Positions 15,001 to 53,365 of a DNA stretch of 64,000 nucleotides are shown here, piece by piece (position 1 is the stretch's first letter; each line of letters begins with the position of its first letter). The notes beneath the pieces are model-generated. The model was given only the letters and a program-made list of their open reading frames with translations. It searched no databases and was not told where the DNA came from. The stretch is taken from contig JBHGNT010000016.1 of the NCBI GenBank assembly GCA_043228905.1, positions 7,874,001 to 7,938,000 on the forward strand, in the 5' to 3' direction. The stretch comes from Azolla caroliniana. Its lineage: Eukaryota > Plantae > Polypodiophyta. Both the position numbers and the translations under genes were made by a program.

Positions 15001-16375
15001 TTATCAGTTTTATAGATACCCTATTCTGAATCTTTGACCATATGATGTCCCTTTTAATCAAATCATTCTCCGAAAATGACCTAGCTTTCAACAAGGTCTC
15101 ATAATAATCTGAGGCTATTTGCCTCATTTGACTAGAATTTGTGGTATAAGAGCCGTCCTGACATTTTAACCTCGAAATCCTAACAGATGTCTTATGATGA
15201 TTATGCACTGCAAAAAACAGTTTATTTACTTTATCTCTCGATTCAGCCCATGAAGACGATATATTATGATAATTAAAATCCGCTGAAATCTTTTGTAATT
15301 CCAATATCTGGTTCCCTACTTGTATCACACGAGAATTTATATACGTTGAATATGGTCTTCTCTCTTGTAGATGTTGCAAAGATTTCAACCCCCTACGAAG
15401 TCTTCCTATTTTAGTACAAGTGTCATAAAATACTTGTTTAGCTTTACAGTGGAAAAATTGTTGTGTTTTGCTAATAGCGTTTTGAACACTAGATAATGCA
15501 TAATCATATGAATAGTAGTATTTGTTCCAAATATTATGCACACTAGGAGCACAAGCTTGTCTAAGAAACACATGATTCGGAATTTTAAACTAGAATTTCT
15601 ATGTTGCTCCTGCAAGACTATAACTAACCAAAGTGGTGCATGATCAGAAAAGGAAAACGAAGGTAAAATTCCAATTGAGCCTCCTTTGTCCCACAAAAAT
15701 TTATCCGCATAAACTCTATCTAACCTAGACAAATTGGTATTTGATTGTTTTCTATCCGAACGTGAATAAGCTAAGGAATCTTGCATTCGTTCAAAGGAAG
15801 ACACATGCCACAAGTCCATTAAACCTAAAGAAAAGATCAACCATTCCCATTCATATAATTCTGAACCAAATAATGGTTGAAATGTGCCTCCTAACCTATC
15901 ACATGCATCCTCCAACATATTAAAGTCACCCGCAATTGCCCAATGTTCAACAACTGGTAATTGTGGCATTATGCTCTTCCATAATGCCGTTCTATCTCTT
16001 GCATGATTCATTGCATAAATATTCAACAAACCCCACTTCTTTGAACCGATTTGAAGAATTATATATTGTTCTCTACCACAATCCAAAACTCCATAATGCA
16101 TGAAAGCATACCACCAAATATCGCTTATTGCTATACAAAGACCTGCTTTCAAACTATTATCCCCAATCACAGGCACTCAGAATTGTTTCCATTGGCCTGA
16201 CAACAAATTTCCATAGTTTTGAATTCTTTGTTCATTTAAATGATGCTCTTGAATAAGCAAAACATCAATCCTACCGATCAAAGATTTTCTTAGCTGACGA
16301 TGGAAAACACTCCTTACCTTACAACAATGTCTACCTCCTAAGCCCCATACATTCCATGAAATAAGATTTAACCTA
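12050..16375 (-). pseudogene. LINE ORF2 (endonuclease-RT-zinc finger), split by several frameshifts and stops
   Basis: ORF pieces 15406-16176, 14666-15571, 13734-14669, 12916-13731, 12463-12888 and 12248-12490 are colinear domains. Confidence 0.88.
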
Positions 16376-17836
16376 TCAATTATTCATGTTTTGCCCTCCT
16401 ACTCTTTTTTCGGCTAGTGCACCTTCTCTACCTTTCCTTCCATCCTCCGTGGCCCTTAATTGTCTCCTATTTGACCACATGTCTTTTCCAGACAACTTAT
16501 GGGCACGCACTGGCAAATGTTTATCTGCTATAGAGACCCTATCGGAGAACTTAACAACCGTAAACGCCGCTATATTGCCACAATCCATATCCGTATGTGA
16601 TGTGTCTACCTTGACCACTTCCTTTGTTGTAATCTCATTCACTACTATGGACCTATTATCTTGTTGTACTTTATGTAAAACCAACTGCTTGTCCTTACTT
16701 GATTGATTATTAACCGTAGAAAAAGATTCTACCGTTTGCACCTTATTTGTATTATGATCCAACTGATGCTCCATTGTGCCAACTGGAATGGATAAACCAC
16801 CATCGACTTTACTACTCCCTGCTTCCTTTTCAAGTGTTTGTAAAGATTGATAAGGATTAGCCTCTAGTAGTAACAGTGGATTAATTATCTTACTAGTCGG
16901 TTTAAAAACATGTTTATTAGACACTGTAGACCAGCCATCTTTACTAACATGTTGTCGAGTAGTTGGATGAGCATCAATATTGACATTCGAGCGTCTCTTT
17001 TGACAATCTCGACCTAAACGCCCAAACTGTCAACACACAAAACATTGATCGGGCAAACCTTGATAATATACCTTTTGTATAATCGGTGGTTTATTTATAA
17101 GTAGATTAGGTAAAGAAATAGTTGTCGGAAAATGTCTAGATCTTGGTGTGCTTATCCTAACTGTAGGGGCCCCACCCGCTCTATCTATTGCATAATCCTG
17201 TCCGTAATATGTAGCAATCACCTTACCAAACAACGCCCCAATACTAGGCAGAACATTCCTCCATTCCTTTCTCAATCCAGGAAATATTGCCGTAAAAAGC
17301 ATAGTAGACTCTTGATCTTGCAATATGTCATCTACCTTAATATTATGCGACCATTTATAAAAAGACAACCACGCACCTTCCACTCCAGCCTCCTTAATTG
17401 CCAATAACTTTGTGATGGATTCCTCATCGGCAAACTCCACATGGTAGCATCCTCGAGACATGAATTGAATGTCGACAATGTTATCCGTTTCCTCCGAAAA
17501 GGCAGCGTACAAAGTATGCCGAAGCTCCGATCTATTCAATCTCGTACCCTGTACCTGCACAACCAAAGAAAACACCTCTAAACGTTGAACCTCTCCTTAG
17601 ACTGTAATTTTATCCTCCTCCGACAACATTAGGTCGACTTGCTCATCACAAAGATGAGGCGAAAGTTGGGGGGGTACACTGGACTCCCCTGTACGCATGT
17701 ACGGCCCAGCCACAGATGGAACCTGTGTTTGATCCGTCGTCGACCTCCTGCTCGTGGTGGAAACAGGTCGCACTGTGGCGGCACTGTTTGCGCCACACGT
17801 GACCTGCTCATTTTTTGCCTGCTGCGTCTGCTGCAT
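16376..17836 (-). pseudogene. LINE ORF1 (DUF4283-like plus CCHC knuckle), interrupted by stops
   Basis: ORF pieces 17597-17836, 17030-17575 and 16376-16924 lie in one frame; V.YQGLP..CFVC motif. Confidence 0.8.
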
Positions 17837-22060: not shown

Positions 22061-22640
22061 TCTTTGGATAATTGGTCCCTCTGGATGGGATGAGTTGGAG
22101 AGCCGAATCGGATGAAGGTCAGCTGAGAGCCGAAAGTTGAAAGTCGATTAGGCCATATCCGATTAGAGGCTACATTTGTAAATAGCCCATGCCGTGTATG
22201 AGTATAAATACAGCTACGACAATCATTATGTAATGTGATGTACAGAGTTGTTGTGATAGTGTATTGAGAGTGACCTCACAAAGAGAGTGTAGGTAACCGT
22301 CTGTAAGACGAATATGAGCTCAAGGTTGTTGCCTAGAGTCTCTTGTATACCTCTTTACATAGTTATTCTGTTTGGAGTCTATGGGCTCCCGTGGTTTTTC
22401 CCATTCAGGGTTTCCACGTTAATATCTCGTGTCTCTGTGTCTGTGCATTTTCTGTTTTTAGTTGTTTCGGTTATTGTCTTTTCATTGTCATCTAGAATCG
22501 GTTGTTGCCGGTCTCATATTCTCAACAAATTGGTATTAGAGCTGAGGTTCATAAACTTGAAGCTGTAGAAAATATGGACGAATTCTTCGAGGGGATGTTC
22601 AAGCTAACTAGTGTCGTGAATGTGTGTGTGTGTGTGTGTG

Positions 22641-22734
<94 letters not shown>

Positions 22735-23744
22735 CAGGAAATGGAAATGATATTATATTATGAGAAAACAAGGTTACAAAGAGTAGGCTAAGGGCTAAAG
22801 ACTGGTGTTGAACCGAATGAGTTGTGATAAATGTATAGACACCTATTTATAGATCCTTATGAAGTATTCTAGAATGTTCTAGAATATTTTAGATATCTAA
22901 GATAATAAATATAATCATGAAATATTCAAGAATGTTCTAGAATAATCTAGAATGTTCTAGAATAATCTAGAATGTTCTAGAATATTCCAAATATCTTGTA
23001 ATAAATAAAATTATAATTATTATAACTACACATCATATATGTTAATTTAATGGTTAAAGGTTCAACACACAGACCAAGAAGTTGTGGGTTCGACTCCTAA
23101 TAAGCCAAAATGTATGTCTTCATGATATTATCTCCCCTCTTCAACGACGACTTCCATGAGTCAGAATACAAGATTTTGGACTTGGATTATGGGGATATTT
23201 GTTGTGAAATGCAACAACCATGTCGGAAGCATTAGCAAGATGCTCGGCAAGCTCCCATGTTCGATCATTAGGTGTATAACCTAACCAATCAACCAAATAA
23301 TATAGTTTGTTGCGGATGATCTTGGAGTCGAGAATGGCAACAACCTCACATTCAGAGCCATCAGAAACTTTGATTGGAGGTGGGGGTGGTGTAAGACGAC
23401 CCGAAATAGAGCTTGGTGTGTAGGGCTCCAAAAGTGAGACATGGAAGACTGGGTGAAGATGCATATCAGGAGGAAGATCAAGGTGAAATGTCACATCATT
23501 GATCCTACTACAAATCACATATGGACTGAAACGTGGATAATCTAGTTTGTAGCAAGGTTGGGTGGTTTTAATGCTACCTTATAAGAACCATACTCGATCG
23601 CCTACTTGAAACGTAGTCGATGAATCACACCGATGACGGTCAACAACCTTCTTGTGAGTGGTTTGAGCATCACCTAAATGGTGCAAAAGTATATCCTGAA
23701 CTTCTTGGAGTTGGGTGAGCCAATCTTTAGCAGCCAGGTTTGTC

Positions 23745-24806
23745 GAGAAGGAGCATCGACTGTAAGTCGAAAAATGAGGGCGTATTCTCCCTTGTACAAA
23801 CCGCAATCCGGAAAGCTCCAAACTTGGACGCCAGGCCTCCAAGACAGACATGCACCATCCGTCTTCCTCTACGGTGACGTTAATAGAGGCAAGCGCGTCA
23901 CAGATCCCTTTGATCCGGGCTGTGTAATCTGCCACCGACATGTTCTTCTGTCGAACATTGCTCAACTCCTGTCTGAGTTGCAGCTTCCGGGCAGTGGTGC
24001 TTGCGACGAAGACCTTTTTCAAGTTTCCCCAAGCATCCTTCGGTGTCTTGGCGTCACGGATATGGCTGAGCAACTGGTCACCGACACTGGACGCGAAGCA
24101 GTACATCACCATGCTTGCCGCCTGTTCCCACACTAGGAAGTCCTTGTGTGTCGTCTCCGGTGCTGAATCGTTCACTCCGTCGACATAACTCCAGTAGCCA
24201 TGCCCAAGCAAGTACTGGTGCATCTTGTATGACCAAGATGCATAGTTGGTTTTGTCGAGCTTCTCCACCGGGAGCGACGTAGCCATACCTCTGTCCATTT
24301 CTCCTTTTGTGTCTGTTTTCCGATCTGTTAGGGTTTCCTTCACAAGCGTAGATGTCTGCAACAGAGGTTCTCAACCCACGCGCTCTAATACCATGTGAAA
24401 GATAGCTTGCGGAAGCGTTAGAAAGAACAATACACAAAGAGAGAGAGAGAGAGAGAGAGTAGGACACACTATTTTTCAAAATTATATGAATACTCTGTGT
24501 TCTCTCTCTTCTGTATCTATAACGCACTCATCAACGTTATTTATACAAGTCCACACGGGACTGTTAGAAGTACGGTGTACTTCAATGCTCACACGAGCGT
24601 CTAACACTAACTACGAGACTATAACTGCCTAGTAGTCTAACCTATACTAGGCTTCATGTTACGGATTGGATCCGTCATACCGGCTCCCCAGCTCACCGGT
24701 CCTTACTGCTTACCGGCTCGGTTGCTCACCGGCATACCGATTCATCTCACTTACCAGCTCAGGCTTATTCAGCTGATCCGGCTCCGGTTGAGCTTGCCGC
24801 TCAACA
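23745..24806 (-). mobile_element. Truncated Copia C: LTR (24394-24806), PBS and 5' gag, fused by deletion to the T1 integrase remnant
   Basis: LTR TGTTGA...TTTCACA, PBS tggtattagagcg (24381-24393), gag LPVEKLDKTNYASWSYKMHQYL...AWGNLKKVF. Confidence 0.85.
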
Positions 24807-27698
24807 ATTTGGAATGATCCCAAAGGATCGTTTAAGAGTTTAACGTCGTCAACATTTGTTGAATCAAGTACCCTCATGATTTTACACTAGTTGGTGCTAT
24901 CACTACCATTGGATTGTTTGGGTATGAGTATGGTGGTGGAAATATTGAACTTTCACAATGTATAGTTTGCATCAAGCATTCCCTTTGGCATTACTAGCAA
25001 TTGTGACCTCCCCTTGTTATGAGTGCCACTTCCACTTTCAATGGTTTCCATCTTCTAATAGACCAATACATAGTTGTCGCCTTTACAACTTTCTCCTCCA
25101 CAACTATTCTAGATGGCTAATGATGAACCTCACTCTAAATGTCATGTGAACTTGGACTAATAACAAATAAAGCACATATCATAACAAAGAACATATCAAT
25201 ACATATCATTTACATACCCATATAGTTGTCCAAATGTAATAAATGAAATTAAGATTAGAATATAGATCAAAAGAGGGCATCTTAATGCAAAAACATTGTG
25301 AAGTAGTATTGCTAAGAGGTGATTCAAAATGCAAAGTTAACTAGTTATTCACATATGCATAATTTGTGGGAGCGTTGATCTCAATTGGTACTCTCATAAA
25401 ATATGTCACACACTTTCCTTTGTTTTTAATTTGATTTAGTTTTGTTCAACCATAACACAATCTAGAATACAAGCAACAATCCGCCCAATGCTTTTGTGTC
25501 ATGCTAACAAGGATTCTCATCTAGGCAACTTAGTTTATTGGTGGATTTACATTGAGATCAAACGAGCATGAGCTCTAGCCTAAAGCTAACTAGTTGGAGC
25601 AAAGTTATAAAGGGAAAGACTCGGAAATTGGCTTGAGTTCCTCTTTATACTCCCAAAGCCCCCTCCCCAGTTCTCGTTGTTTTTTGGAATGCACCCAGGT
25701 CAAAGGCAAATGAGAAGTGATGGGGGTGCTTGCACCTTCACATGCTTCTATAGGACCTCCATTTTCTTTATGGGCACATGCCAAAGTTGGGGGACGATGC
25801 CAATATGGAATGCTCCTCTTGAGTTTTTGAGTAGATCAAGATATCATCCAAGTAAACTATGATGAAGATATCGAGGAAGTCCGAAAAAACTATCATTCGC
25901 CATATGTTGGAAAACTACTGGTGCATTCGCAAGATCAAATGGCATCATTGTATACTCAAAATGGCCATAGCGAGTGCGGAATGCAGTCTTCCATTAATCC
26001 ACGGGATGAATTCGAACAATGTTGTAGGCACCTCGAAGATATTACTTCGTGAAATATTTTGCTCCATTGAGGTGTTCCAGAAGGCTTGAGATCAATGGTA
26101 GAGTATATCGGTTTCGAATAGTCACTTTATTCAAACCCTGATAATCCATGACCATACGAAGCGTACCATCTTTCTTCTTAACGAAAAAGATGGGTGCACC
26201 TGTAAGATATCTTGAACGTTGGATAAAACCATTTGCTAGGTTCTCATCAATATATTCTCGAAGAACCTCTAACTCCGTGGGCGAAAGGTTATAAATTGGC
26301 CCCCATGGAGGCTCTTTTCCTAGGCTACAAATCAATCGGGCAATCATATGGTTGATGTGCTAGTTGTCTATTAGTCGTCACCTTATTGAACATATCAGAG
26401 AATTCTATATACTTCTTTGGTAGTTGGACCCCCAACTCTTGTGAGCTAGATAAAGGAGTTGTTAAAACCGCAAACACAAACATGTCTTCTGTCCTTCCAT
26501 TCTCACGTAACTAATGTATAGAGATTGTTGAAATTGTGTGGGATCCTAGATCCTTTGTTGCAGTCTCACGAGACTCGGACTGTACCGTGACCTTTTCAAT
26601 AGTTCTTTTTCTCCAATAAATAGTTGGGTTATGTGGACAATTCACGGCGATATGTCCTGAACCACCAGAATATAGGCATAGGTGATGTGCTCGACATCGT
26701 TATTTCTCAGCATCTGATAAGGGCCCTTGACGTTGTGTTGACTCTATTTCCATCGGAGTGGGACCATCCCTCCTAACGGGTCTGGAAACTTATGGCGGTG
26801 TTGCGACTATTGAAGCGTACGTTTGTTCCGATCGGTAGCGTAACATTTGTTGCCGTTCAGAACTTCGCTCAAATAGGCGATTATCACATCGCACAGCTCG
26901 ACTAATTGCCTCAGTAAGAGACTTCGGATCTTCGTGGAAAGTAAGAAGAAGATCTTTGACATCGTTACGCAAACCCTAACGGCATTGATCCATTAAGGTT
27001 GCCTCATCCCAAGGGATGTCACATGCCAAGAGACGGAAATCGGTTGCATAAGCTAAAGCGGGATGATCTCCTTGTCGGAGTCTTCGAATCTTGTTTATTG
27101 TCATCCTAGTGCTATCGATGTCTCCAAACTAGCTTGAAACTCCTTAACGAATGCCTCGAAATCCTCCAACAACGGTGATTTCTTCTCAAGAAGTGGTGCA
27201 AACCATGCTAACGTTGTACCGCTTACCAAGGTTCCTACTAATCCCACACGAGCAACATCAGTTTGGTACCGATTGGGATGTAACTGAATCACCAAACGGA
27301 CTTGATTCAAGAAACCTCGAAACAGAGATCTTGTACCATCAACTTGGAAGGGAGGCTAATCTTTGGTTCCCTTGGGGAGTTTTGAACTCCCACGGTTTGT
27401 TCTCGTAATGCTAATATAGTAGCCTCGAGTTGATGAACCCATTGTGCTAACTCCTCATATTGGTGAGCTTTCTCGGTACTCACGTGTTGTAGATCCCCGA
27501 GCAGTCTTTGATTTTCTTGCTCTAATGCCACAAACTTAGTCGTGAGCATGTCGAGCTCAGAAAGGACACACATATATTCTTGCTTGCGGAGAGACTCCAT
27601 AACTGAGAGGGAAAAAGAAAGAAGGAAAAAGAAGAAAGCTTGCCAGGGTTATTGGAAGAGGAAAAAGAAATATTCAGTTCAAACCGTCGTGACTCGTG

Positions 27699-27755
<57 letters not shown>

Positions 27756-29376
27756 ACGTCTTCTACGACCAAAATTGGCCCATGAGACAAATGGTTTACA
27801 ACAAAAAATGGGATATTTACCCATTCATCGAAAGTAAAAAATAAAAATAAAAATAGAGTTTTAAGCTAAATAGTTCTAGTAAAATAAAATAACAAACATG
27901 TTCTACAATGAAAATGATGTTATACTAGGCCTAATTTCATTTCCATCCAAGTCTCTCGAAGAGAAGCGGGAGGTCAAAGGGTTTTGATGTGGATGTGGCA
28001 TGTGGCCCCAATGTAAAAGGTACCCCAACCATAGCTTCTAGTCAACGTTGCTCACGTTCCCTTATCTTCTTAATCCTTTCTACTCTGTGTCGACTTGTTT
28101 TGAAGCCCAAGATCCGAGGGCATTTGGTTGTTCTTTGCATTTCGGCTTCCTCAAGAGAGAGGCTGAGTGGCGTAAGTGTATCCACATTCATCGTCTCCCC
28201 TTGTTCCTGAAAAATTACATTGGTTACAAGTTGATGAATAGTAAAAGGGTTATGGTTTGTAATTTATTCTCCCTATGTTGTTTTAGCTCTAAGATATACC
28301 TACCTAGTCTCTTTACATCCGGGGTATCTAATAGTTTGGAGAGGGTGGGAGAGGGTCCTAATATGTCTTGGTATTCCACTCGTATCTCGGCATAAGTTGG
28401 GCACTTGCATGTGAAGTGATACTCATCCTCTATCTCTATGTGGCACAACCTACATAGCCTTTCCTCCCTAGGGACTCTATTAGCCCGCCCATTCTCAATC
28501 TCAAGTTGGTGAGATGATATCCTAAGTTGTCCAATGGTCACCCTTCGTGCATTTGATAAGAACGTATCTAGATATCTTGGTCGTGTAATAAAACCTAACT
28601 GAGAGAATTGCAAGAAGTGTTCCTTATAGTACAATATTTTAGATGGGAGTGGCTCTCGTGGGGTGATCCATTTATATTGAGTGTAAATTTTCCATATTTC
28701 TTGGCATATCACTTTATTATGGTCTTCATGAGATATTAGAGTCTGGTTAGTCCCATGGTTGTACTTAAGGGGGGGTAAGTTATTAATGTCTATGCTGTTT
28801 GCAAGTAACCAACTCACCACAGTGCTATACCAAGAGCTAGTGTCTCCAGACGCATGTAGGGATCGAGATTCCTCAAAGGGTCAACATGATATCCTATATT
28901 GTGGTTGGCTATGTATCCGATGAATAAAAACTACCACTTGAAACAATGCTTCTACTAACATCAGGGCATATTGAACTCTGCTTTAATAATGTCATGTGGT
29001 ATTGTCGATTTGCTTCAGAGTTGACGTGATAACATCGTCACCAAAGGTCTCTCTAATTGCGTCCACATGAAAGATGGTAGACCTAGTGTCATAACTAGAC
29101 TCGAACCCATAACCTTTTGTTACACGGGTCGAGACTTTACCATTAGGTTATGAGTTGTAATTTGAAGGATATTATTTTCATTTAGGTTTTATTAGGAAAT
29201 TGATGTATATTCCAGATTTCTCTGGAACATTCTAGAAACTTCAGGAGTATTCCTGAAGACACTATAAAAGGAGGCACAAGGCATTAGTTTGAACCAAATC
29301 GGTTCTACGCCAGTCTTAAGCCTTCTAACTACTGTTGTATATCTTCCGTCATATAATACATATATCTTTCGCATCA

Positions 29377-29420
<44 letters not shown>

Positions 29421-29641
29421 ACTCATTCCTTCTCTCAAAGTTCGACACCTCTCATAGTACTAATCCTTCTCTGTCTTAGTACTATTCCCCAACAATAGTA
29501 CTAATCCTTCTTTTAGTACTAATTCCTTCTCTGCCTTAATAGAGTTCCTGACAGTTTGAACCGATTTTTCCTACTAGTCTCCCTCTTCCTTCTGTCTCTC
29601 TCCTTTCCTACTAGTCTCTTATTTCCCTTTTCCTTCATCCC

Positions 29642-30811
29642 ATGACCACCGTTAGCGCTGAAGAGTATCAATCCGTTTTCTCGGAATTTCAATGCTTGAA
29701 AGAGAAGTTTCATGCTTTGGAACAAGAAAATCAACGCTTGTTGGGGGATCTTCAGCAAATTTCCTTAGAAAAGCAGCAAACGCAACAACAGCATGGGGAA
29801 CTTGCGTTACGCGTGCAACAACTCGAAGCAACCATCGTAGCAATGCAACAACAAGGGCACGGAGCACAAGGGATTCATAAAGAACCCAAGATTGGCCTTC
29901 CCACGAAGTTCGATGGAACGCGATCGCAGTTTAGAGGGTTTCTTAACCAGGTACGGTTAGTTATTCAAATGCATCCGTCCCGATATCCCACCGATGCATC
30001 ACGAGTGGGTTTAGTAGGCACGTTGTTAACTGGCTCAGCATTAGCATGGTTCGCTCCGCTACTAGAAAAGGAATCTCCAGTACTAAATAATTTTGAAGAA
30101 TTCATAAGTGAGTTTAAAGCATGTTTTGGAGATATTGACAACATAAGGACTGCAATCAACAAAATCCGGCGATTACGCCAAGGTGACCGTCCAGCCTCCG
30201 CATATGCTGCAGATTTCCGCCTACTCGCCGCCGATATCCCCTGGGATGATCAAGCATTGATGGAGCAGTTCCGCTATGGTCTACGCAACGATGTCAAGGA
30301 TTTACTCTTGACTTTCCCTGAAGAGCCAAAATCATTAACAGAAGCAATCAGTCGAGCGGTCAGATGTGACAACCGCCTCTTCGAGCGACGTTCGGAACGA
30401 CAATTTCAGATGCCGAGGGCAAGATCCGAGCCTACCTATGCCTCAATGGTAGCGAAACCTTTTCAAAGGGAGTCACATAATGCGCCTCCAGTAAGTACTC
30501 CAACTCCAATGGAAATTGACACTACACGTCGTCGTGGGCCGCTATCGGAGGAGGAAAAGCAACGACGCCGAACAAACCGATTATGCCTTTATTGCGGTGG
30601 ACCAGGGCATATCGCGATAAACTGTCCCCATAGACCAAGAAGGCAGGTAAACCAAGTCATTGTTAGTTCTGACTATACTAAACCCGAGTCTATGTCAGTA
30701 GGAATCTCTGATAATCCTCATAGTCATAATAGTCCTAATAGTACTAATAGCCCGAATCTCGCAAACAAATTTGATGTCCTTAGCCAATTAGAAGAAGAGT
30801 TAAACGACTAA
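29642..30811 (+). CDS. gag: T2 Gag (coiled coil, retrotransposon gag domain, CCHC knuckle)
   Basis: 389 aa; PTKFDG, LTGSALAWF, PTPMEID, CLYCGGPGHIAINC. Confidence 0.93.
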   Translation: MTTVSAEEYQSVFSEFQCLKEKFHALEQENQRLLGDLQQISLEKQQTQQQHGELALRVQQLEATIVAMQQQGHGAQGIHKEPKIGLPTKFDGTRSQFRGFLNQVRLVIQMHPSRYPTDASRVGLVGTLLTGSALAWFAPLLEKESPVLNNFEEFISEFKACFGDIDNIRTAINKIRRLRQGDRPASAYAADFRLLAADIPWDDQALMEQFRYGLRNDVKDLLLTFPEEPKSLTEAISRAVRCDNRLFERRSERQFQMPRARSEPTYASMVAKPFQRESHNAPPVSTPTPMEIDTTRRRGPLSEEEKQRRRTNRLCLYCGGPGHIAINCPHRPRRQVNQVIVSSDYTKPESMSVGISDNPHSHNSPNSTNSPNLANKFDVLSQLEEELND

Positions 30812-30850
30812 GTCCAGCCAAAATAGGAGCCGTTTGGTTGGACAGCCCTA
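30799..30850 (+). promoter_or_regulatory. Putative -1 ribosomal frameshift signal
   Basis: G_TTA_AAC (30799-30805) in gag frame, 6-nt spacer, 11-bp stem gtccagccaaa/tttggttggac; the -1 frame is open into pol. Confidence 0.7.
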
Positions 30851-33800
30851 GATCTGTGCAGCCCATTAGTGGTTCCATTCCCTCTAAGCAAGTTAGTGAT
30901 GTGTTCGTAGTCCAAGTAGCAGTTAGTACTAAAAGTACCCCTCCAGTACATACCTTAGCCCTTCTAGATTCCGGAGCTAATTCTTGCTTCATGGATAGGA
31001 ATTTTGCCCGAGCTCATCAGATATCTCTCAGAAAGCTCCCATGTCCAGCCTCAGTAGTAGTCATTGATGGTCGTCCCATTGCTTCTGGTAATATCATAGA
31101 AGAGTCGGAACCCGTTAATATTGTCCTAGATAACTTAACATGTGTAGTATCATTTAATATTATTAGTATTCCAGAACATCCCATAGTTTTAGGATTACCA
31201 TGGTTCGAGTTACATGACCCAGACATAGATTGGAGGACAAGGGAAATCCGGTTGCGACAAACCCAAGGATCTACCCAGAAGGTTGCAACCATTACGCTAC
31301 GACAGTTGCGTGAGGAAGGGCGCAAGGAGGAAATGTTTCTCTTTGCAATATCAGTACAACCCTCCAGCACCACCAAAGAGGAGTCCACCGTTCAACTTCC
31401 CGAGAAGTATCGTCAGTATGCTGATGTGTTCGATAAAGTACAAGCCAACACACTTCCTCATCATCGGCCGTACGACTGCGCCATCGACTTACAACCGGGA
31501 AAAGAGCCGCCATGGGGGCCGATCTACAATTTGTCACCAACCGAGCTAGAAGTCCTTCGAGCCTATATAGAGGAGAATTTGGAGAACGGTTTCATTCGGC
31601 ATTCGAAATCTCCAGCCGGCGCACCCATTTTCTTCGTCAAGAAAAAAGATGGCTCGCTTCGACTCGTTGTAGATTACCGTGGCTTGAATAAGGTCACAGT
31701 AAGAAATAGGTATGCTCTTCCCCTTATCTCAAGTCTTTTAGAACGGATCAACGGTGCCAGGTTCTTCACGAAGATCGACTTACGAGGAGCCTATAACCTC
31801 GTACGGATCCGACCAGGAGATGAATGGAAGACCGCGTTTCGCACCAGATATGGGCACTTCGAGTATACGGTCATGCCGTTCGGACTCACTAATGCGCCGG
31901 CAGTCTTCCAGCACATGGCGAATGATATATTTCGAGACCTCTTGGATGATTTTTTGATCATCTATTTGGATGATCTACTGGTTTATTCAAAGACCCAAGA
32001 AGAACATGATTCTCATGTACTATTAGTACTAAAACGACTTCGAGAACATGGTCTGTATGCAAAGTTAGAGAAATGTAGTTTCGGGTGCAACCAAGTGGAG
32101 TTTCTCGGCTATGTCATCTCCTCAGAAGGCATATCTATGGACCCAGCCAAGGTCAAAATGGTGATAGAATGGCACACTCCGCGTTCGGTGCGGGATGTGC
32201 AATGCTTCCTAGGCTTTGCAAATTTCTACCGGAAGTTCATACAAAATTACTCAAAAATTGTGCTGCCTCTCACACAGCTCACCAGGAAGGGACAATCATT
32301 CATTTGGTCTAAAGAGACGGACATGGCTTTCGAGAGTCTTAAGAAGGCGTTTACATCAGCTCCAATTTTAGGTCATGTGGATCCGGAAAAACCATTCATT
32401 ATCGAAGCTGATGCATCGGATTTCGCATTGGGGAGCATTCTGTCACAACAGGGTAACGACGAGAAGCTACATCCTGTGGCTTTCCACTCCCGTAAGTTTG
32501 ACGCCGCCGAAATCAACTACGAAATTCATGATAAAGAGTTATTAGCAATAGTTGATTCTTTTATGCAATGGAGGCATTTCCTGGAGGGATCTCCTCATCA
32601 GGTCACTGTATTCAGTGACCACAAGAACCTTGCCTACTTTCAAGATGCTCGTGTACTGAATCGACGTCAAGCTCGGTGGGCCCATTTCCTCACACGCTTC
32701 GACTTCAAAATTACATATCGTCCGGGGAAGCACCAAGGGAAGGCAGATGCATTATCACGGCGTTCGTATCTAACACCACGTCCCGGTGAGCCAGCTTTCG
32801 ATAACCAGAAGCAGGTAATCTTGGGTCCAGCACGACTGCAAGCAGCACAGATCTTTGACATGCCCGTGGATTCCGACATTACCAATACTATACGTGAGGA
32901 CTTGAAGACTGACGCTTTCGCCCAAGCTATACTAGCACAAATTGACCCCTCTCGAGCGTCATGTTCACAATCACAATCACCAGGTACGGATTATCGGCAA
33001 TTCAAATACTGTGATGGATTCCTCTTCTTTAAAGAACTTTTGTATGTTCCTAATGGTTCTTGCCGCCTTCGAGTAGTACAAAACTGCCATGACACATATA
33101 CAGCAGGACATTTTGGTAGTACTAAAACATTAGATTTAGTACAACGATCATTCTGGTGGCCCCGTATGCGACAATTTGTCGAAGATTTTGTTCGGACTTG
33201 CGATACATGCTGCAGAGCGAAAATGCCAAGACATCATCCATATGGTTTATTAGAACCATTACCAATTCCAAGCAAGCCATGGCAATCCATTGCTCTTGAC
33301 TTCATTACAGATCTTCCAGTCTCTAAGGGATTCAGTGCGATTCTCACAGTGGTGGATCGATATACGAAGATGGCTCATTTCTTACCATGTACTAAAGAAA
33401 TATCTAGTGAAGACACCGCCGAAATTGTCATGCGGGAAGTATGTCGGCATCATGGACTCCCTGATAATATCATCAGCGATCGTGGACCCCAGTTTGTGTC
33501 AAAATTCTGGAAGCACCTTTTTAAAATGCTGAAGGTCACTTGTAACCTCTCCTCCGGCTACCACCCACAAACCGACGGTCAAGCCGAACGAACAAATCAA
33601 ACACTGGAGCAGTATCTGCGGTGCTTTCTCAACTATCATCAGAATGACTGGGCATATATTCTTCCGTTCGCCGAATTTGCCTATAATAACGCTATCCACG
33701 CATCGACTAAAGTCACGCCATTCTACGCTTATACGGGATATCATCCCCGGTGGTGTGTCCTTGAAACCCCAGAAGTGTCCACAAATCCTTGCGCGGAGGA

Positions 33801-34392
33801 TCGTTTGGAGCGGTTACGCAAGATAGCGGATTTATCTACTCAACTCCAGCAAGCTCAACAATCACACAAGGACTACGCAGATCGTCATCGACTTCCATCC
33901 AGTTTTAACATTGGAGATCGGGTGTGGCTGCTACGACGACACATCAAGACTACTCGCCCATGTGAGAAGTTGGATTATCGACGATTAGGTCCTTTCCGTA
34001 TTATCGGGAAGATTAATGATGTCGCTTTTCGTCTCGAGCTACCTCCGCAACTTCGGATACACCCGGTGTTTCATAGTTCTCTCCTCGAACCCTATCACGA
34101 GAGCACTATCCCAGGACGTACTATACAACCTCCACCTCCTATCGAGCTCGAAGATGGACCTGAGTATGAGGTCGCTGCCATCCTCGATTCCAAGATTGTT
34201 CGCAACAAGCTCTACTATCTAGTCGATTGGCTAGGATATAGTCCCAGCGAGCGTACTTGGGAACCGATCGAGAATGTGACCAATGCTCGTGCTCTTCTAG
34301 AAGACTTCCATCGACGATATCCCGAGAAACCGGGTCCTCAATCCAAAACGACTCGTGAAACTCGTCGTTTTAAAGGGGGGATAGTGTCATAA
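30838..34392 (+). CDS. pol: T2 Pol (protease-RT-RNase H-integrase-chromodomain), in the -1 frame relative to gag
   Basis: LLDSGA, YLDD, EADASD, H..H/C..C, DRGPQF, TDGQAER, YEVAAIL..YLVDWLGY..TWEP; uninterrupted 1184 codons. Confidence 0.95.
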   Translation: MDSPRSVQPISGSIPSKQVSDVFVVQVAVSTKSTPPVHTLALLDSGANSCFMDRNFARAHQISLRKLPCPASVVVIDGRPIASGNIIEESEPVNIVLDNLTCVVSFNIISIPEHPIVLGLPWFELHDPDIDWRTREIRLRQTQGSTQKVATITLRQLREEGRKEEMFLFAISVQPSSTTKEESTVQLPEKYRQYADVFDKVQANTLPHHRPYDCAIDLQPGKEPPWGPIYNLSPTELEVLRAYIEENLENGFIRHSKSPAGAPIFFVKKKDGSLRLVVDYRGLNKVTVRNRYALPLISSLLERINGARFFTKIDLRGAYNLVRIRPGDEWKTAFRTRYGHFEYTVMPFGLTNAPAVFQHMANDIFRDLLDDFLIIYLDDLLVYSKTQEEHDSHVLLVLKRLREHGLYAKLEKCSFGCNQVEFLGYVISSEGISMDPAKVKMVIEWHTPRSVRDVQCFLGFANFYRKFIQNYSKIVLPLTQLTRKGQSFIWSKETDMAFESLKKAFTSAPILGHVDPEKPFIIEADASDFALGSILSQQGNDEKLHPVAFHSRKFDAAEINYEIHDKELLAIVDSFMQWRHFLEGSPHQVTVFSDHKNLAYFQDARVLNRRQARWAHFLTRFDFKITYRPGKHQGKADALSRRSYLTPRPGEPAFDNQKQVILGPARLQAAQIFDMPVDSDITNTIREDLKTDAFAQAILAQIDPSRASCSQSQSPGTDYRQFKYCDGFLFFKELLYVPNGSCRLRVVQNCHDTYTAGHFGSTKTLDLVQRSFWWPRMRQFVEDFVRTCDTCCRAKMPRHHPYGLLEPLPIPSKPWQSIALDFITDLPVSKGFSAILTVVDRYTKMAHFLPCTKEISSEDTAEIVMREVCRHHGLPDNIISDRGPQFVSKFWKHLFKMLKVTCNLSSGYHPQTDGQAERTNQTLEQYLRCFLNYHQNDWAYILPFAEFAYNNAIHASTKVTPFYAYTGYHPRWCVLETPEVSTNPCAEDRLERLRKIADLSTQLQQAQQSHKDYADRHRLPSSFNIGDRVWLLRRHIKTTRPCEKLDYRRLGPFRIIGKINDVAFRLELPPQLRIHPVFHSSLLEPYHESTIPGRTIQPPPPIELEDGPEYEVAAILDSKIVRNKLYYLVDWLGYSPSERTWEPIENVTNARALLEDFHRRYPEKPGPQSKTTRETRRFKGGIVS

Positions 34393-36669
34393 CTAGACTC
34401 GAACCCATAACCTTTCGTTACACGGGTCGAGACTTTACCATTAGGTTATGAGTTGTAATTTGAAGGATATTATTTTCATTTAGGTTTTATTAGGAAATTG
34501 ATGTATATTCCAGATTTCTCTGGAACATTCTAGAAACTTCAGGAGTATTCCTGAAGACACTATAAAAGGAGGCACAAGGCATTAGTTTGAACCAAATCGG
34601 TTCAACGCCAGTCTTAAGCCTTCTAACTACTGTTGTATATCTTCCGTCATATAATACATATATCTTTCGCATCATCATTCTCTCTCTCTCTCTCTCACTC
34701 ACTCATTCCTTCTCTCAAAGTTCGACACCTCTCATAGTACTAATCCTTCTCTGTCTTAGTACTATTCCCCAACAATAGTACTAATCCTTCTTTTAGTACT
34801 AATTCCTTCTCTGCCTTAATAGAGTTCCTGACACCTAGAGCCCATACTACTGATGCATACATGAGGGAAGGGGTCACTAATGAGTCGAAGAGCCATCCCT
34901 TACTCCGTGGCTCTTGAAAGTATGCATGGTGGCATTGTCTCTCTAAAAGTGAGAGGCATGCATACCCTCTCGTTAACCTATCTTTGGCTCTGCCTAGGTC
35001 ATTAGAATTTACATGAGTGAGCACTAAAAGTGACACCCAAGTATACATATGATCCAACTACCTCAACTAGATTATGAGAGAGGATTAGGTGACATTTACT
35101 CCTAACTCGGGACGATGTATGAAAGATAAGGACTTTAGTTCTCGTTAGATTCACTACCAGTCCTCATTGTGTACAAAAGTCATCTAGGGCATTAAGATGC
35201 TTTTGTAGGTCGTGTTCGACTCCGAGAGCAAGACAATGTCGTTTGTGTAGAGTAAGAGACTAACTTGCGTATCCCCAATAGCTACTCCCTTGCCTCCCTT
35301 ACGAGCAATAAAATCAGTGATCTCACCAATGTAGATCCCCAAAAAGAGTCGGTGATAGGGGGAAACCCTGTTTTACACCAATGGTGCTAGTGAAACAATT
35401 GGATAGGCCACTTGGCCATCTTATGCACCTAGAGACTTGCTTATATAGGGCATACATGGCCCAGATCATGGTCAATTGTGGTGGAAAACCCTCGGCGAGG
35501 GCGAAGTTGAAGATTAGAGTGAGAAAGGGGGCTAGGCACTCTCGAGCATATATGATGTGCTCAGCTTGCAATCCTGTGTGGTCCATGGATTTCCTATGTT
35601 TTAATTTTTTTATGACCTTCGTGACCCTAGAGGTCGTGAAAAGTGTCCCCATGTTAGGTCGGGGTGTGGAAGGCATTGGGATGGGTGGTTGGTTCGGGGT
35701 TTAGGCCAAAATTATTGTCTTCTAAGGCCAAAATTGGCCCATGAGACAATTGGTTTACAACAAAATGGGATATTTACCCATTCATTGAAAGTATAAAAGA
35801 AATAAAAATAAATAGAGCTTAAACTAAATAGTTCTAGTAAAATAACAAACATGTTCTACAATGAAATGGCTTTATATTAGACCTAGTTTCATCTCCATCC
35901 AAGTCTCTCGAAAAGAAGTAGGAGGTAAAAGGCTTTCAATGTGGATGTGCCCCCCCGTGGTCCCAATGTAGAAGGTACCCCAACCATAGCTTCTAGTCGG
36001 CGTAGCTCACGTTCTCTTTGTTGGGATTTCAGTCCCTCCGGATGGGATGTCCGGAGATGAATGACGGCAAGCCCGGTTACGGTTACGGAACCGGAGGATG
36101 AAGAGTACCCGGCATGAAGCCGGATGAAGAGTACCCGGTTACGGAACCGGATGAAGATACAGGCCCGGTGAGAGTACTCACCGGATGTGGGGACATATTT
36201 GTGAATATGTTTTCCAAGAGCCCTTTGAGGCTATATTTGTAAATAGCCTGAAAGTCATATGTGTATAAATATGACTTAGGGCAAACTGTTTAGCGCTGCT
36301 GTATGTTGTTGCTCATTTCTCTGTTTTCACTTAGTAGGAGCTAAGTGAGCAGCCGAGAGAGAGAGAGAGTGAGACGAAGAGGTCGTTGCCTCTGTGTATT
36401 ACCGCCGCCTGTGGCGAAGACAGTGAGCTCAAGGTTGTTGCCTTGTAGCTTCACCATTGTACATCTCTGTTTGTAGTGATAGTTGGAGTTTGAGGACTCC
36501 CGTGGTTTTTCCCACTTAGGGTTTTCCACGTAAAATATCCTATGTACCCTTCTCTCTATTGTCTTCGTGCATTTTGTATTTCCTGTTTTCTGTGAGTTGA
36601 TCCTATTTCTCGGTTGTGGCCGAGTACTGTGTTTAACAAAGTGGTATCAGAGCGACGGTAACACAGAAA

Positions 36670-39600
36670 ATGGAAGGCGGCGGTAGTGGGCCTCCGGGGA
36701 TGATGGTGTTGAACTCACAGAACTACGCCGACTGGAAGATAAAGATGGAAGACCTTCTCATCGTCCGAGACCTGTACGAACCGATCGACAATGCCGAGAT
36801 ACCCAAAGGGGTAATAGAGTCGGAGTGGAAGCTCCTGAACCGGAAAGCCGTAGCGACGATCCGGCAATATGTCGATGTAAGTGTCCTGCAACATGTGGCG
36901 AACGATACGAACGCCTATGAGATGTGGCAGAAGCTGTCCGGACTGTATGAGAGGAAGAATGCTCTGACCCGGACCTCCCTGATGAGGAAGATAGTGAATC
37001 TTAAGTACCGGGACGACGAGAGCATGGTCGAACACGTCAGCACGTTCATGGGATTCGTGAACCAGCTTGCGGCGATCAAGTTCCCGTTGGATGATGCAAT
37101 GCAAGCCATCATGCTGATGTGTACCCTTCCGGAGAGCTGGGAAAACTTGGTAGTTACTCTCAGCACCTCCTGTAAGGAAGAGAACTTGTCTTTACTAACG
37201 GTAAAGACAAGTATTCTAAATGAAGAAGCGCGTCGGAGAGATAAAGAACCGGCCTCCGACTCGAAGGCGCTGCTTACCGAATCGGAACGCGGAAGACAAC
37301 GGAACCGGAGTCCGCAAAGACGGGAGAAGTCGGGGACACGGTCGCAGTCGAGGGGAAGACCTACATGCTTCTACTGTGGGAAGCCGGGGCACTTCCAGAA
37401 GAACTGTCGGCATTTCCGGAAAGACAACGGAACCGACGGTACCGATTCGAAGAAGTCACTGGAGCGAAACGGTGCATACCGGGGAGCCACGGACCGGAGA
37501 GGTCCGGATCGGCGAGGGCAGGACCGGAAAGGAACGACGGCACTCGCGGCAAGTGAAGAAGAGATAATGCTCATTACCGAAGAGAGGGAGCTGAACCTTG
37601 CCGGTGAAGAGATGACCTGGGTGGTCGATTCCGGAGCGTCGTTCCACCTGACCCCGGAAAGAAGATACTTCTCATCCTACACAGCCGGTGAGCATGGATG
37701 TGTTCGGATGGGAAATGAAGGTACGTGCCGGATTGCCGGCATAGGAGACGTGTGGCTGATGACATCAACGGGATGCAAGATGCTGCTGAAGGATGTCCGA
37801 CACGTTCCGGAGGTTCGATTGAACCTGATTTCGGCTGGGAGGCTAGACGATGAAGGCTACACGGGTAGCATCTGAAACGGTGTCATGAAGTTCAGCAGAG
37901 GGAGCCTGATAGTGGCTCGGGCCCGGAAGGTCAACACACTGTACCTGATGAATTCCCGGCTATGTCCGGAGGAGCTGAACGTGGCAGCCGACACTGCCGG
38001 TGAGCTGTGGCACAAGAGACTGTGCCACATGAGTGAGAAGGGGATGAAGAGGCTTGCAGAAGACAACCTTATTCCAGTGAAGCATGTGCACCTGGAGAAG
38101 TGCACCGATTGCCTGGCCGGTAAGCAGAACCGAACCTCCTTCCACTCAAGGCCACCGACGAGACGTAGCGCACCATTGGAGTTGGTGCACATTAACGTGT
38201 GTCAAGTAGAAACGAAGTCACATGGCGGAGCCCAGTACTTCGTGACATTCATTGATGACCACAACCGGAAGCTGTGGATGGCACCGTTGAAGACAAAGGA
38301 CCAAGTGTTGTGCGTCTTCAAAGAACTCCACGCGAGAGTGGAAAGAGAATCCGGCAAGAAGCTGAAAGCACTACGAGCGGATAACGGAGGAGAATACCGA
38401 GGGCAATTTGAGGAGTATTGCCGTTCGATGAGAATCCGACTCGAGTTTACTGTGCCGAAGACGCCGGAACAGAACGGGCTAGCCGAGAGGATGAACCGGA
38501 CCATAATGGAGAGGGTCCGGAGTATGCTGGCGCATGCGAAATTACCCAAGGGGTTTTGGGCTGAGGCAATGTCGACGGCGACATACGTGATAAACAGATC
38601 ACCCTCAGTACCTTTGGACGGAGACACGCCGCAGAGAGTGTGGACCGGTAGGGAAGTATCCTACCGGCATCTGAAGGTGTTCGGGTGTCTCGCACATGTG
38701 CATGTGGCAAAGGACCGGAGAGGAAAGCTAGATCCAAAGACCCGGCCATGCATATTCCTCGGTTACGGCGATGACGAGTTCGGCTACCGAGTATGGGACC
38801 CGGTCGACAAAAAGATATTCCGGAGTCGTGATATCATCTTCATGGAGGACAAAACACTCGCCGACTGGGAGTCGGAGAAGAAGATGAAGAGCTCCAAGTC
38901 GACCGGTGAGGATCAACTCTACGAGGAGCAGTCCCGACCGGCAAGGGACCGGTTAGCACTCGAGGATCCGGCCGAAGACGGTGAAGAAACAGAACCGGCC
39001 GAGGAAGATGAAACTGATACCGGAACCTGCCCCGATCCCGAAATGGATTCGGATGAAGAGGAAACGGAGGAGCCGGTTACCGAAGCTCCGGAACGGAGAT
39101 ATCCTCTAAGAGAGAGAAGGGCCCCCCGGAGATTTCCGGAACCAGAGCACGTGCTGCTAACCGACGAGGGGGAGCCGGAGAGTTTTGAAGAAGCAAAGCT
39201 TGACACCCATAGCCGCAGGTGGTTAAGTGCCATGCAGGAGGAGATGGATTCCCTGCATGAGAACCACACATATGAACTTGTGGAGCTGCCGAAAGGAAAG
39301 CGGGCACTTCGAAACAAGTGGGTGTTCAAGCTGAAACCGGGAGATGCCGGAAACCCCCCGAGATACAAAGCCAGGATCGTGGTGAAGGGGTTCCAGCAAA
39401 AGAAGGGCGTCGACTTCGACGAGATATTTACCCCGGTAGTGAAGATGACCTCCATCCGGACGGTGCTGAGCATAGCGGCAAGCATGGACCTCGAGGTAGA
39501 ACAGATGGACGTGAAGACGGCATTCCTTCACGGTGACCTCGAAGAAGAGATCTACATGCAGCAACCGGAAGGATTCGAGAAGAAAGGGAAGGAGCACCTG

Positions 39601-39856
39601 GTATGCCGGTTGAAGAAGAGCCTTTACGGACTGAAGCGGGCTCCCCGACAATGGTACCGGAAGTTCGACTCCTTCATGACCGACGAAGGGTACCACAAAA
39701 CGTAGTCCGATCACTGCGTGTTTGTGAAGAAGTTCGAAGGAGGAGACTTTCTAATACTCCTCCTGTACGTGGACGACATGTTGATCGTTGGACGGGACCA
39801 GGTCAAGATACAGATGCTGAAGAAAGCGCTTCACCAAACTTTCTCAATGAAGGACC
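36670..39856 (+). pseudogene. Copia A gag-PR-IN-RT (in-frame stops at 37873 and 39703)
   Basis: CFYCGKPGHFQKNC, WVVDSGAS, DNGGEY, AERMNRT, DVKTAFLHG, LYVDDMLI; the stops look like CGA>TGA and CAG>TAG. Confidence 0.93.
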
Positions 39857-40737
39857 TGTCGAATACAAGTGTATAATGGACGTATTCACACTATCCCTTT
39901 TGTATAGCTCAAGTTTGGGCCATTTGTGTAATTAGCATAAACGGGAGTTGCCCTAAGTCGGTCACTATATAAAGTGACCTTGTAACCTTTTTGCAAGGTT
40001 GGTTGTATTATTTTTCTATTGAACAGAAAGAGTCTTTTGTGCCTCCTCTCTCTCTCTCTCTCTATCTCTGTGCACGACCTTGGAAACTGTCATACACAGG
40101 TTTCAACTCGAATCGAATGCTTCTTGATCTTCCGCATTGACGGCCTTGTCTCCAACATTTGGTATCAGAGCGAAGGTTCCTCAACCCGCTGTCGGCCGTC
40201 GTCTCAGCCTGCACAGCATTCGGTTTCTTGCGTCATTCGAAGAAGGGAGAAGAAGAAGAAAAACGAGGCTTGCATCTCATCGCGTTAGATCATCTTCGCT
40301 TGGAGTAAGCCAGCAGGTTGTACTCTGTTCCTTGTGATCGTAACCGCTCGAGGTGAAATCCCCTTGTGCAACATTGACACGATCGTGCTCCACTCGGTTA
40401 AACGGCATCCGAAGAGGTCATCAAACGCTGCTCGCCGCTCATTGTAACCACTCGGTGCAGATCGGTCTCAAGACAACAACCCCAAATTCGTGCTTCATCC
40501 GGCTGATCGACATTTGGGAGGATCAGTTGGATCCGTCTCTCTCGTCGCTGCAGTCACCCGAAGCAGAATCGGTCCAGACAATCGGTTTCAATAATCGGTA
40601 TTCGGCACATATATCCGAAGCCGAACCGACTCGGGTTCAAATCCGACTAGAACGATATCGGGTGAGCAAACCGGCTGCACTCCAACAAGGTTCGTAGTCA
40701 ACTCCGAACCGAGCTTCGTCAACCGAAACCAAATTTG

Positions 40738-44910: not shown

Positions 44911-45404
44911 AGCCGGACACAGCGCAGGATGGTTTCTGACAACCGACATCAGTTCCTTAATGATCGGCTTCAACTCTTCCGACCCGACCAGTTCGGTCTT
45001 CTGCCTTCGGACCCTGCCGACTCGAACAAAACTGATATGTCCGAGAACCTAGGTTTATACCTGTAATCTTAGATAACCCATGTATACGCCCATTACGGGG
45101 GAGTGTCGAATACAAGTGTATAATGGACGTATTCACACTATCCCTTTTGTATAGCTCAAGTTTGGGCCATTTGTGTAATTAGCATAAACGGGAGTTGCCC
45201 TAAGTCGGTCACTATATAAAGTGACCTTGTAACCTTTTTGCAAGGTTGGTTGTATTATTTTTCTATTGAACAGAAAGAGTCTTTTGTGCCTCCTCTCTCT
45301 CTCTCTCTCTATCTCTGTGCACGACCTTGGAAACTGTCATACACAGGTTTCAACTCGAATCGAATGCATCTTGATCTTCCGCATTGACGGCCTTGTCTCC
45401 AACA

Positions 45405-47285: not shown

Positions 47286-47321
<36 letters not shown>

Positions 47322-53006: not shown

Positions 53007-53365
53007 AATATTATATTATGAGAAAACAAGGTTACAAAGAGTAGGCTAAGGGCTAAAAACTGGTGTTGAACCGAATGAGTTGTGATGAATGTATAGGCAC
53101 CTATTTATAGATCCTTATGGAGTATTCTAGAATGTTCTAGAATATTTTAGATATCTAAGATAATAAATATAATCATGAAATATTCAAGAATGTTCTAGAA
53201 TAATCTAGAATGTTCTAGAATATTCCAAATATCTTGTACTAACTAAAAATACAATTATTATAACTACACATCATATATGCTATTACAATGGTTAAAGGTT
53301 CAACACACAGACCAAGAAGTTGTGGGTTCGACTCTTGATAAGCCAAAATGTATGTCTTTATGACA

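Follow-up and report, generated by a model that had tools for sequence, protein, structure and literature searches.

Probable self-priming by Tf1/sushi-type chromoviruses of the fern Azolla caroliniana, with inverted copies joined at the primer-binding site

Seven families of LTR retrotransposons in the genome of Azolla caroliniana are, with a probability that we put at about 0.9, Tf1/sushi-type chromoviruses that prime reverse transcription with the initial 11-12 bases of their own transcripts. Two of them, T2 and T1, lie in the window, i.e., the whole 64,000-nucleotide stretch of contig JBHGNT010000016.1 analysed here; the other five are sister families. The first-pass annotation had proposed Tf1-type self-priming for T2 and T1, a proposal that is supported by covariation between primer-binding site (PBS) and LTR, by a fixed geometry, by the lack of any tRNA 3'-end match and by rearranged copies joined at the primer duplex. 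Self-priming as such is not new, being known in Tf1 and already predicted for the Tcn1 clade; judged from sequence, the novelty would lie in evidence at the scale of a genome, in what is likely a new host group and in a candidate new cis-element.

T2 is an intact LTR element of 5747 bp on the plus strand of the window (Table 1), whose two LTRs differ by two substitutions (29118 and 29306) and one 18-nt gap. GTTTGAACCGATTT, which had been noticed in place of a tRNA-type site, is indeed located at 29554-29567, directly behind the end of the 5' LTR (TGACA); we refine its limits, as the pairing covers 29556-29567, the leading GT remaining unpaired as a spacer. The complement reported for it within the LTR, AAATCGGTTCAA, is perfect in the 3' LTR and carries one substitution in the 5' LTR (29306, T for A), and it begins 33 nt past TATAAAA, as had been claimed. 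The chance of finding a given 12-mer within a 467-nt LTR is about 3e-5.

Table 1. Features of T2 and T1 in the window.
Feature	Positions	Strand	Remark
Target-site duplication CCTAG	left 29082..29086, right 34834-34838	+	5-bp repeat flanking T2
T2 5' LTR (TGTCA...TGACA)	29087..29553	+	467 nt
T2 TATA box (TATAAAA)	29263..29269	+	32-33 nt ahead of primer base 1
U3 hairpin arm able to pair with the primer	29289..29295	+	within a longer imperfect U3-R stem
Predicted self-primer (RNA nt 1-12, C|A start)	29296..29307	+	private substitution at 29306
Unpaired 2-base spacer (GT), LTR end to primer site	29554..29555	+	
T2 PBS	29556..29567	+	complement of own LTR, no tRNA 3'-end complement
Hypervariable junction directly 3' of the PBS	29568..29571	+	position of the primer 5' end
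T2 gag	29642..30811	+	Retrotrans_gag, Ty3_capsid, DUF4939, weak CCHC
T2 pol	30784..34392	+	frame overlapping gag; protease, RT, RNase H, integrase, Tf2-type SH3, chromodomain
T2 polypurine tract	34372..34384	+	
T2 3' LTR	34385..34833	+	second primer copy 34594-34605, hairpin arm 34587-34593
T1 spacer and PBS	27672..27684	-	11 bp pairing, one G-U in the window copy
T1 3' LTR	22612..23127	-	primer copy 22818-22808, no U3 hairpin
Probable 5' part of T1 5' LTR	53008..53365	-	primer 53076-53066; nested insertions separate the LTR from the PBS

The order of its domains (PR-RT-RH-IN), its C-terminal chromodomain with the cage residues Y/W/Y, its TG..CA LTRs, its polypurine tract (PPT) and its 5-bp target-site duplication (TSD) are those of a Ty3/gypsy chromovirus. 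Over RT-RNase H, T2 shares about 47-63% identity with named relatives from fungi, fish and frogs, and about 42-52% with those from streptophyte algae and one seed plant. In an RT tree rooted at its midpoint, where the references are database proteins named by host rather than type elements and where the rows T1_L153 and T5_L196 are RTs of nested neighbours, T2 falls on the fungal/vertebrate side, apart from the seed-plant clades and from the tRNA-primed chromovirus of the window (100/99 split). T2 also fits the description of plant Tcn1 elements (REXdb) in its size, 5-bp TSD, overlapping gag-pol, aromatic-cage chromodomain and self-type PBS. By its sequence, T2 is a Tf1/sushi-type (Tcn1-like) chromovirus.

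The PBS and the two LTR matches first attributed to T1 on the minus strand are where they had been placed, with a TATA box 33 nt upstream; a third match of the T1 LTR primer in the window is at 61854-61844. T1 is a broken copy; the match at 53076 falls within what is probably the 5' LTR of T1 itself, which nested insertions totalling about 25 kb have split off. The T in the PBS of this copy is specific to it, the family having G-C at this pair in 21 of 25 copies. Its pol is without much of the region from RT to integrase and is interrupted at 23750-25800 by a copia-type gag and an LTR-like sequence. Positions 27685-53365 are a nest of at least five insertions within the probable T1 5' LTR: one element that contains T2 and whose repeats lie at 27752-29057 and 35711-47286; two copia elements, one at 36017-46926 with the other (39857-45404) inside it; and a second chromovirus (47333-53006, minus strand). 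The latter, nested in the T1 LTR, has a chromodomain, 36% Pol identity to T2 and an ordinary TGG primer site that we take to be of the tRNA-Met type; by exclusion, it would be Galadriel- or Galahad-like. Elsewhere in the window, a broken LINE-like element lies on the minus strand at 12463-17596 (RVT_1 match at 13737-14693); a match at 16041 falls inside a LINE-like ORF and was taken as chance.

In order to follow primer and PBS beyond the window, we scanned the 523-Mb assembly (22 large contigs) and collected copies by LTR, leader and Gag-domain searches, placing both sites from their flanks only. From 235 loci, 231 had a gag match and 230 could be anchored; 32 of them, whose LTRs are broken or nested, failed a filter on flank score and distance and one was a duplicate, leaving 197 non-redundant copies in seven families (T2, 142; T1, 25; T3, 14; T4, 12; T5, 2; T6, 1; T7, 1). 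One has to keep in mind that loci L001-L030 were picked by their likeness to the LTR and PBS of the window and are thus unable to show PBS variants. The same assembly holds tandem nuclear tRNA clusters at L236, L237, L253 and L254, with tRNA-Lys(TTT)/Asn, tRNA-Ile(TAT) and tRNA-Arg(TCT). Its plastid psbZ and petN (L250:977-2515, G000:C73) carry several residues, Pro or Ser in place of the usual Leu or Phe, that resemble C-to-U editing sites. The order psbZ-trnG-trnC-petN on the plastid contig agrees with an inversion known from core leptosporangiate ferns (PMC3098776).

In all 197 copies and seven families, the PBS starts two bases past the LTR end and pairs over 11-12 bases with the LTR of its own element, which answers the covariation check suggested at first pass: over 11 positions, 97.0% of the pairs are Watson-Crick in register, vs. 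6-47% when the two strands are slid by 1-4 nt. The primer cores are AAATCGGTTCAA and AAATTGGTTCAA in T2, ATTCGGTTCAA in T1, AATTCGAATCAA in T3, AAGGAGATCAA and AAGGAAATCAA in T4, AAGGTGAACAA in T5 and ATTCCGGTTCAA in T6, and two-sided changes between lineages are found at 8 of the 11 positions. When the PBSs of nine lineages are permuted, the mean is 64.9 pairs; the true order gives 96 of 99, a value reached by 1 of the 362,880 orders. The change between T1 and T2 that had been read as compensatory holds in part: there is one true two-sided change, at the 10th pair from the primer 3' end, the rest being a difference in length (11 vs. 12 bp). Within T2 (n = 142), the variable pair is C-G in 66 copies, T-A in 69, T-G in 4, C-A in none and something else in 3, a distribution that stems from few independent events; private variants of primer or PBS have no mirrored change on the opposite side.

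The geometry is equally constant. The distance from the TATA start to the primer is 32-33 nt in all seven families, and the first base of the primer is an A after a C in the usual form of every family; an A after C at this distance from the TATA box is typical of plant start sites. When RNA is folded from the predicted start A, the pairing probability of primer and PBS reaches 0.94-0.96 in seven representatives, the further values being 0.68 for T7 and 0.81 for the mutated 5' LTR of the window. All seven families also have a conserved C(A/G)CCAG(T) directly behind the primer and its predicted cut site, whatever the primer sequence; this motif may be a signal for cleavage or strand transfer.

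The 2-4 bases past the PBS are the most variable spot in young T2 copies, with a heterozygosity of 0.81-0.86 in three subfamilies (n = 30, 9 and 14), vs. maxima of 0.28-0.50 in the other 5-nt windows of the same subfamilies (1250-1281 windows over about 1.3 kb, outside the CT repeat). Even among pairs of copies less than 0.2% divergent, 135 of 174 differ at this junction. In three older T2 subfamilies, it is the top or near-top window, being matched by two other windows in one of them. The first junction base in the 142 T2 copies is T in 90, C in 35, G in 17 and never A; among the first 100 purine junctions listed genome-wide, 60 have G and 20 have A once 20 GGTT cases are set aside (counted by eye). 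A junction G is the complement of the C ahead of the primer, and five ordinary copies carry 4-9 bases of complement to the sequence upstream of the primer. Six of these first 100 read PBS, one A, then GGTT (for instance C5:10939950, C6:2585212 and C7:19630705); they are possibly inverted copies (see below) with one untemplated base, or else reflect the leader of a subfamily. No hotspot is seen at the primer 3' end in the LTR. The clear hotspot is limited to T2, since the junction is far less variable in T1 (A in 20 of 25) and T3, which restricts the claim accordingly. The hotspot likely marks the 5' end of the RNA, as far as genomic copies can tell.

Two other explanations have to be weighed at this point. 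The variability could stem from homopolymer slippage or assembly error, as the site is a T run beside a C run and many variants differ in their T and C counts alone; yet other homopolymers of at least 4 in the same young copies have heterozygosities of 0-0.13 only, the junction variants include G and GG, and 53 of 53 young copies show no change within the first 12 bases of the PBS, so that we find this quite unlikely. The other explanation concerns the primer itself: a host RNA, be it a tRNA fragment ending in the T-loop or some other small RNA, would prime, and the match to the LTR would serve RNA folding only. Among 73 distinct tRNA calls of this assembly, an incomplete set, none has a 3' end with a match to the PBS exceeding 2 nt. 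Internally, the best match is to 10 nt of the T-arm of tRNA-Ala(TGC), for the C-G primer type of T2 only; T2 also shares 9 nt of T-arm with tRNA-Asn, the T3 primer holds 8 nt common to T-loops, and a fold-back of the plus strand could yield one of the rearranged forms described below (L296) under any primer. However, the PBS matches its own LTR (11-12 nt) better than any tRNA in six of the seven representatives, the exception being T6, where a G-U in mid-duplex leaves 7 nt exact; tRNA matches do not exceed 7-8 nt in T4 and T5, and the PBS of each family tracks its own LTR while a CCA-end match is absent. Priming by a host RNA is, in our opinion, very improbable.

The self-primed duplex also appears in rearranged copies, in which the PBS is followed by a reversed U3; the changeover is at the hypervariable junction of Table 1. 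This pattern occurs at 53 of 1678 T2 junctions (3%), at 32 of 211 in T3 (15%), at 40 vs. 179 other junctions in T1 (18%) and at 0 of 40 in T4 (0%). Among 50 T2 matches examined, 39 are true inversions (37 independent), 4 are unclear or belong to other families and 7 are not inverted; the 20 T3 and 12 T1 matches examined are all true inversions, and every confirmed inversion uses the reversed U3 of its own family. The usual layout is a full U3 from TG, the primer, a reversed spacer-U5-R, a jump to internal sequence, sometimes through a reversed internal piece, then the PPT and the 3' LTR. One contig (run X5, depth 3.5, the kind of run being a guess) joins U3 and primer straight to the reversed spacer and U5. 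Both ends could be assigned in 19 of 42 inverted loci, with 14 exact 5-bp TSDs, 4 with one mismatch and 1 locus with none. Inverted arms of T2 and T3 that end within R-U5 do so at +10..+20 in 14 of 43 cases (expected share 0.065, p = 3e-7) and at +1..+9 in none, and six further arms continue into U3; this count leaves out 21 of 70 rows, of which 12 lacked an inversion or scored below the cut, 2 were duplicates and 7 were inverted arms failing the alignment filter (ends at -215, -155, -10, +12, +12, +17 and +17), and some of the retained ends are truncated by later insertions. T1 arms are short, the 10 measured ending from +117 to +227 with none near +13; pooled over the three families, 14 of 53 ends are at +10..+20 (p = 5e-6). 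A boundary at +13 fits an RNase H cut after base 12, and the base of a fold-back stem would give the same boundary with no cut.

A U3 hairpin whose arm matches the primer of its own family is present in T2 (where its 5-8 bp belong to a longer stem), T4, T5 and T6 and absent in T1 and T3. In T4, it pairs 11-12 primer bases in 11 of 12 copies, and folding z-scores are -2.2 to -4.9 for four representatives among T2, T4, T5 and T6 and -1.0 for the T-A type of T2. The 7-bp hairpin first described for T2 (TTGAACC-aaatc-GGTTCAA) is perfect only in the 3' LTR of the window copy, and the substitution at 29306 breaks it in the 5' LTR; in the subfamily closest to this copy, TTCGAACC stands in 42 of 69 copies and the form of the window copy in 1 of 69. 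The persistence of the mismatch in 42 young copies indicates that the hairpin is not being perfected. As for the proposal that it masks the primer when transcription starts further upstream, folding predicts such masking in T2 (T-A type), T4, T5, T6 and T7; for the subfamily of the window copy, about 100 nt upstream are needed. Inversions are common in the families that lack a hairpin (T1, T3), less frequent where it is partial (T2) and number 0 of 40 where it is full (T4), with p = 2e-15 for T1 vs. T2 and p = 0.002 for T1 + T3 vs. T4, a trend drawn from four related families of different ages and from search patterns of unequal stringency. As the inversion share falls with hairpin strength, the hairpin may guard against mispriming; such a role is a natural reading because the primer sequence has U3 ahead of it both in plus-strand DNA and in the 3' LTR that each genomic RNA carries. 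Hiding this second primer copy (3' LTR RNA or plus-strand DNA) is a likelier job for the hairpin than acting on upstream-started transcripts only, and we give a guard role about even odds.

Both the inversions and the hairpin can be read otherwise. Self-priming could be right and the inversions be due to host DNA replication or repair switching at the 12-bp inverted repeat after insertion: TSDs would outlast such switching, many inverted copies have further deletions and flipped internal pieces, and T1 arm ends are not clustered. Against this, the reciprocal junction (PBS and leader at the opposite end) is absent, the arm ends of T2 and T3 pile up at +11..+20, and another inverted repeat of the T1 LTR, 10 bp long, has no such joint vs. 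146 intact sites, compared with 40 of 219 at the primer duplex (p = 3e-10). L296 (G000:C4:19608638-19611660) consists of one LTR, the PBS and a reversed U3 only, with a 5-bp TSD and integration by two U3 ends, which requires integration to have followed the rearrangement. We therefore hold switching after insertion to be unlikely. A hairpin without a guard role, i.e., a neutral quasi-palindrome kept by template switching, or one that acts on upstream-started transcripts or on promoter or 3'-end signals, is a real possibility, against which we lean only slightly. T1 and T3 multiplied without a hairpin, upstream-started RNA is predicted to be masked in the families named above, and hairpin strength has no effect inside T2, where inversions show no excess of the C-G type with its weaker hairpin (15 of 53, compared with 37 among the first 100 junctions listed, p = 0.37); still, the arms vary in sequence, each matching its own primer in T2, T4, T5 and T6, the inversion share goes from 15-18% to 3% to 0 as the hairpin strengthens, and 42 young T2 copies keep the mismatch mentioned above.

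The mechanism that we propose for self-priming would run as follows. Transcription would start at the A after C, 32-33 nt past the TATA box (29296 in T2), and the RNA 5' end would fold back on the PBS, which begins two bases past the LTR. As in Tf1, a cut by RNase H behind base 11-12 would then free a primer 3' end, from which RT would copy the 2-base spacer, U5 and R. Probably retained, the primer would be copied up to its capped end into the plus strand, whereby start-site scatter, cap copying and untemplated bases at the primer 5' end would be fixed just past the PBS; extra bases after the PBS copy would be fixed at second-strand transfer. As the primer sequence is also present in 3' LTR RNA and plus-strand DNA, the wrong copy may sometimes pair with the PBS, and RT would then make U3-primer-[inverted U5-R]-internal-3' LTR molecules that integrase inserts normally. 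Strong-stop DNA might jump to the wrong template, its copied primer annealing to plus-strand DNA; the plus strand or a 3' RNA copy might prime on the PBS; or plus-strand strong-stop DNA might fold back. In each of these routes RT has to extend the primer-PBS pair ahead of integration, and the inverted copies likely record the self-priming mechanism both working and misfiring. The U3 hairpin of some families would likely hide the second primer copy and lower mispriming.

A broader proposal is tentative and falls just short of an even bet: the second primer copy would misprime often, 3-18% of integrated junctions being dead inverted copies, several lineages would have evolved a primer-matched U3 hairpin that cuts the loss to near zero, and inversions and hotspot together would locate both the 5' end of the RNA and the site of the cut with no data other than a genome sequence. 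If true, this cost of self-priming has not been described before, and the mapping could be extended to any self-priming family. A hairpin that suppresses mispriming would be a new LTR cis-element and would explain a trade-off of abandoning the tRNA primer. Covariation, footprint and joined products, with their exact coordinates, are much nearer to in vivo evidence than a single short complement, and the same three screens are applicable to any genome with Tf1/sushi elements, be it of fungi, fish, amphibians or mosses. The inverted copies moreover bring inverted repeats into the genome, which are candidate sources of dsRNA. To our knowledge, experimental proof of self-priming comes from fission yeast alone, and for plants self-priming has been predicted on the basis of a single short complement.

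The comparisons that follow refer to the accessible parts of the papers cited. Neumann et al. 2019 (PMC6317226) predicted self-priming for 83% of 1500 elements of the Tcn1 clade, whose sizes are 5466-9444 bp; T2, with 5747 bp, is in this range and shares with the plant clade the 5-bp TSD, the overlapping gag-pol and the aromatic cage, as well as the kinship to fungal and vertebrate elements (PMC6317226, PMC2864245). That prediction relies on one 10-bp complement per element, and covariation, junction footprint, hairpin and inverted copies are absent from the accessible part of the paper. Plant LTR elements with predicted self-priming named there include the TAR copia elements (Houba, Osr-1), which belong to another superfamily and are unrelated to the fern families. 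For the Selaginella element, Novikova et al. 2010 (PMC2864245) detected no priming of either the tRNA or the self type, and priming is not treated in the accessible text on P. patens elements (PMC7466625). The Tcn1 clade has been reported from mosses and Selaginella only, and a PCR survey that covered 26 ferns and horsetails did not find it (PMC2864245); ferns are thus likely a new host group. In the literature searched, from which subscription papers were mostly missing, we found no description of inverted copies at the primer duplex or of the junction footprint, nor, for Tf1, of a U3 hairpin or integrated R-U5 inversions; the inverted copies look like a new observation.

The closest known system is that of Tf1/Tf2 of Schizosaccharomyces pombe, which have a chromodomain integrase and a PBS complementary to the first 11-12 bases from the predicted start (PMC7175516, PMC4600332, PMC5341516). 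The fern families differ from it by their two-base spacer between LTR and PBS, the Tf1 PBS appearing directly after the LTR (bioRxiv 10.1101/2022.12.06.519325 among sources), and T2 has gag and pol in overlapping frames, unlike Tf1. The three-duplex "pretzel" of Tf1 is only partly matched: the R-U5 stem is 8 bp in T4 and T5 and 3-5 bp in the other families, and the U5-leader stem is not conserved. Tf1 reportedly keeps and copies its primer, leaves a PBS copy at cDNA 3' ends and has an RT that adds untemplated bases there (PMC11042837); such primer retention and untemplated addition fit the junction hotspot of the fern families.
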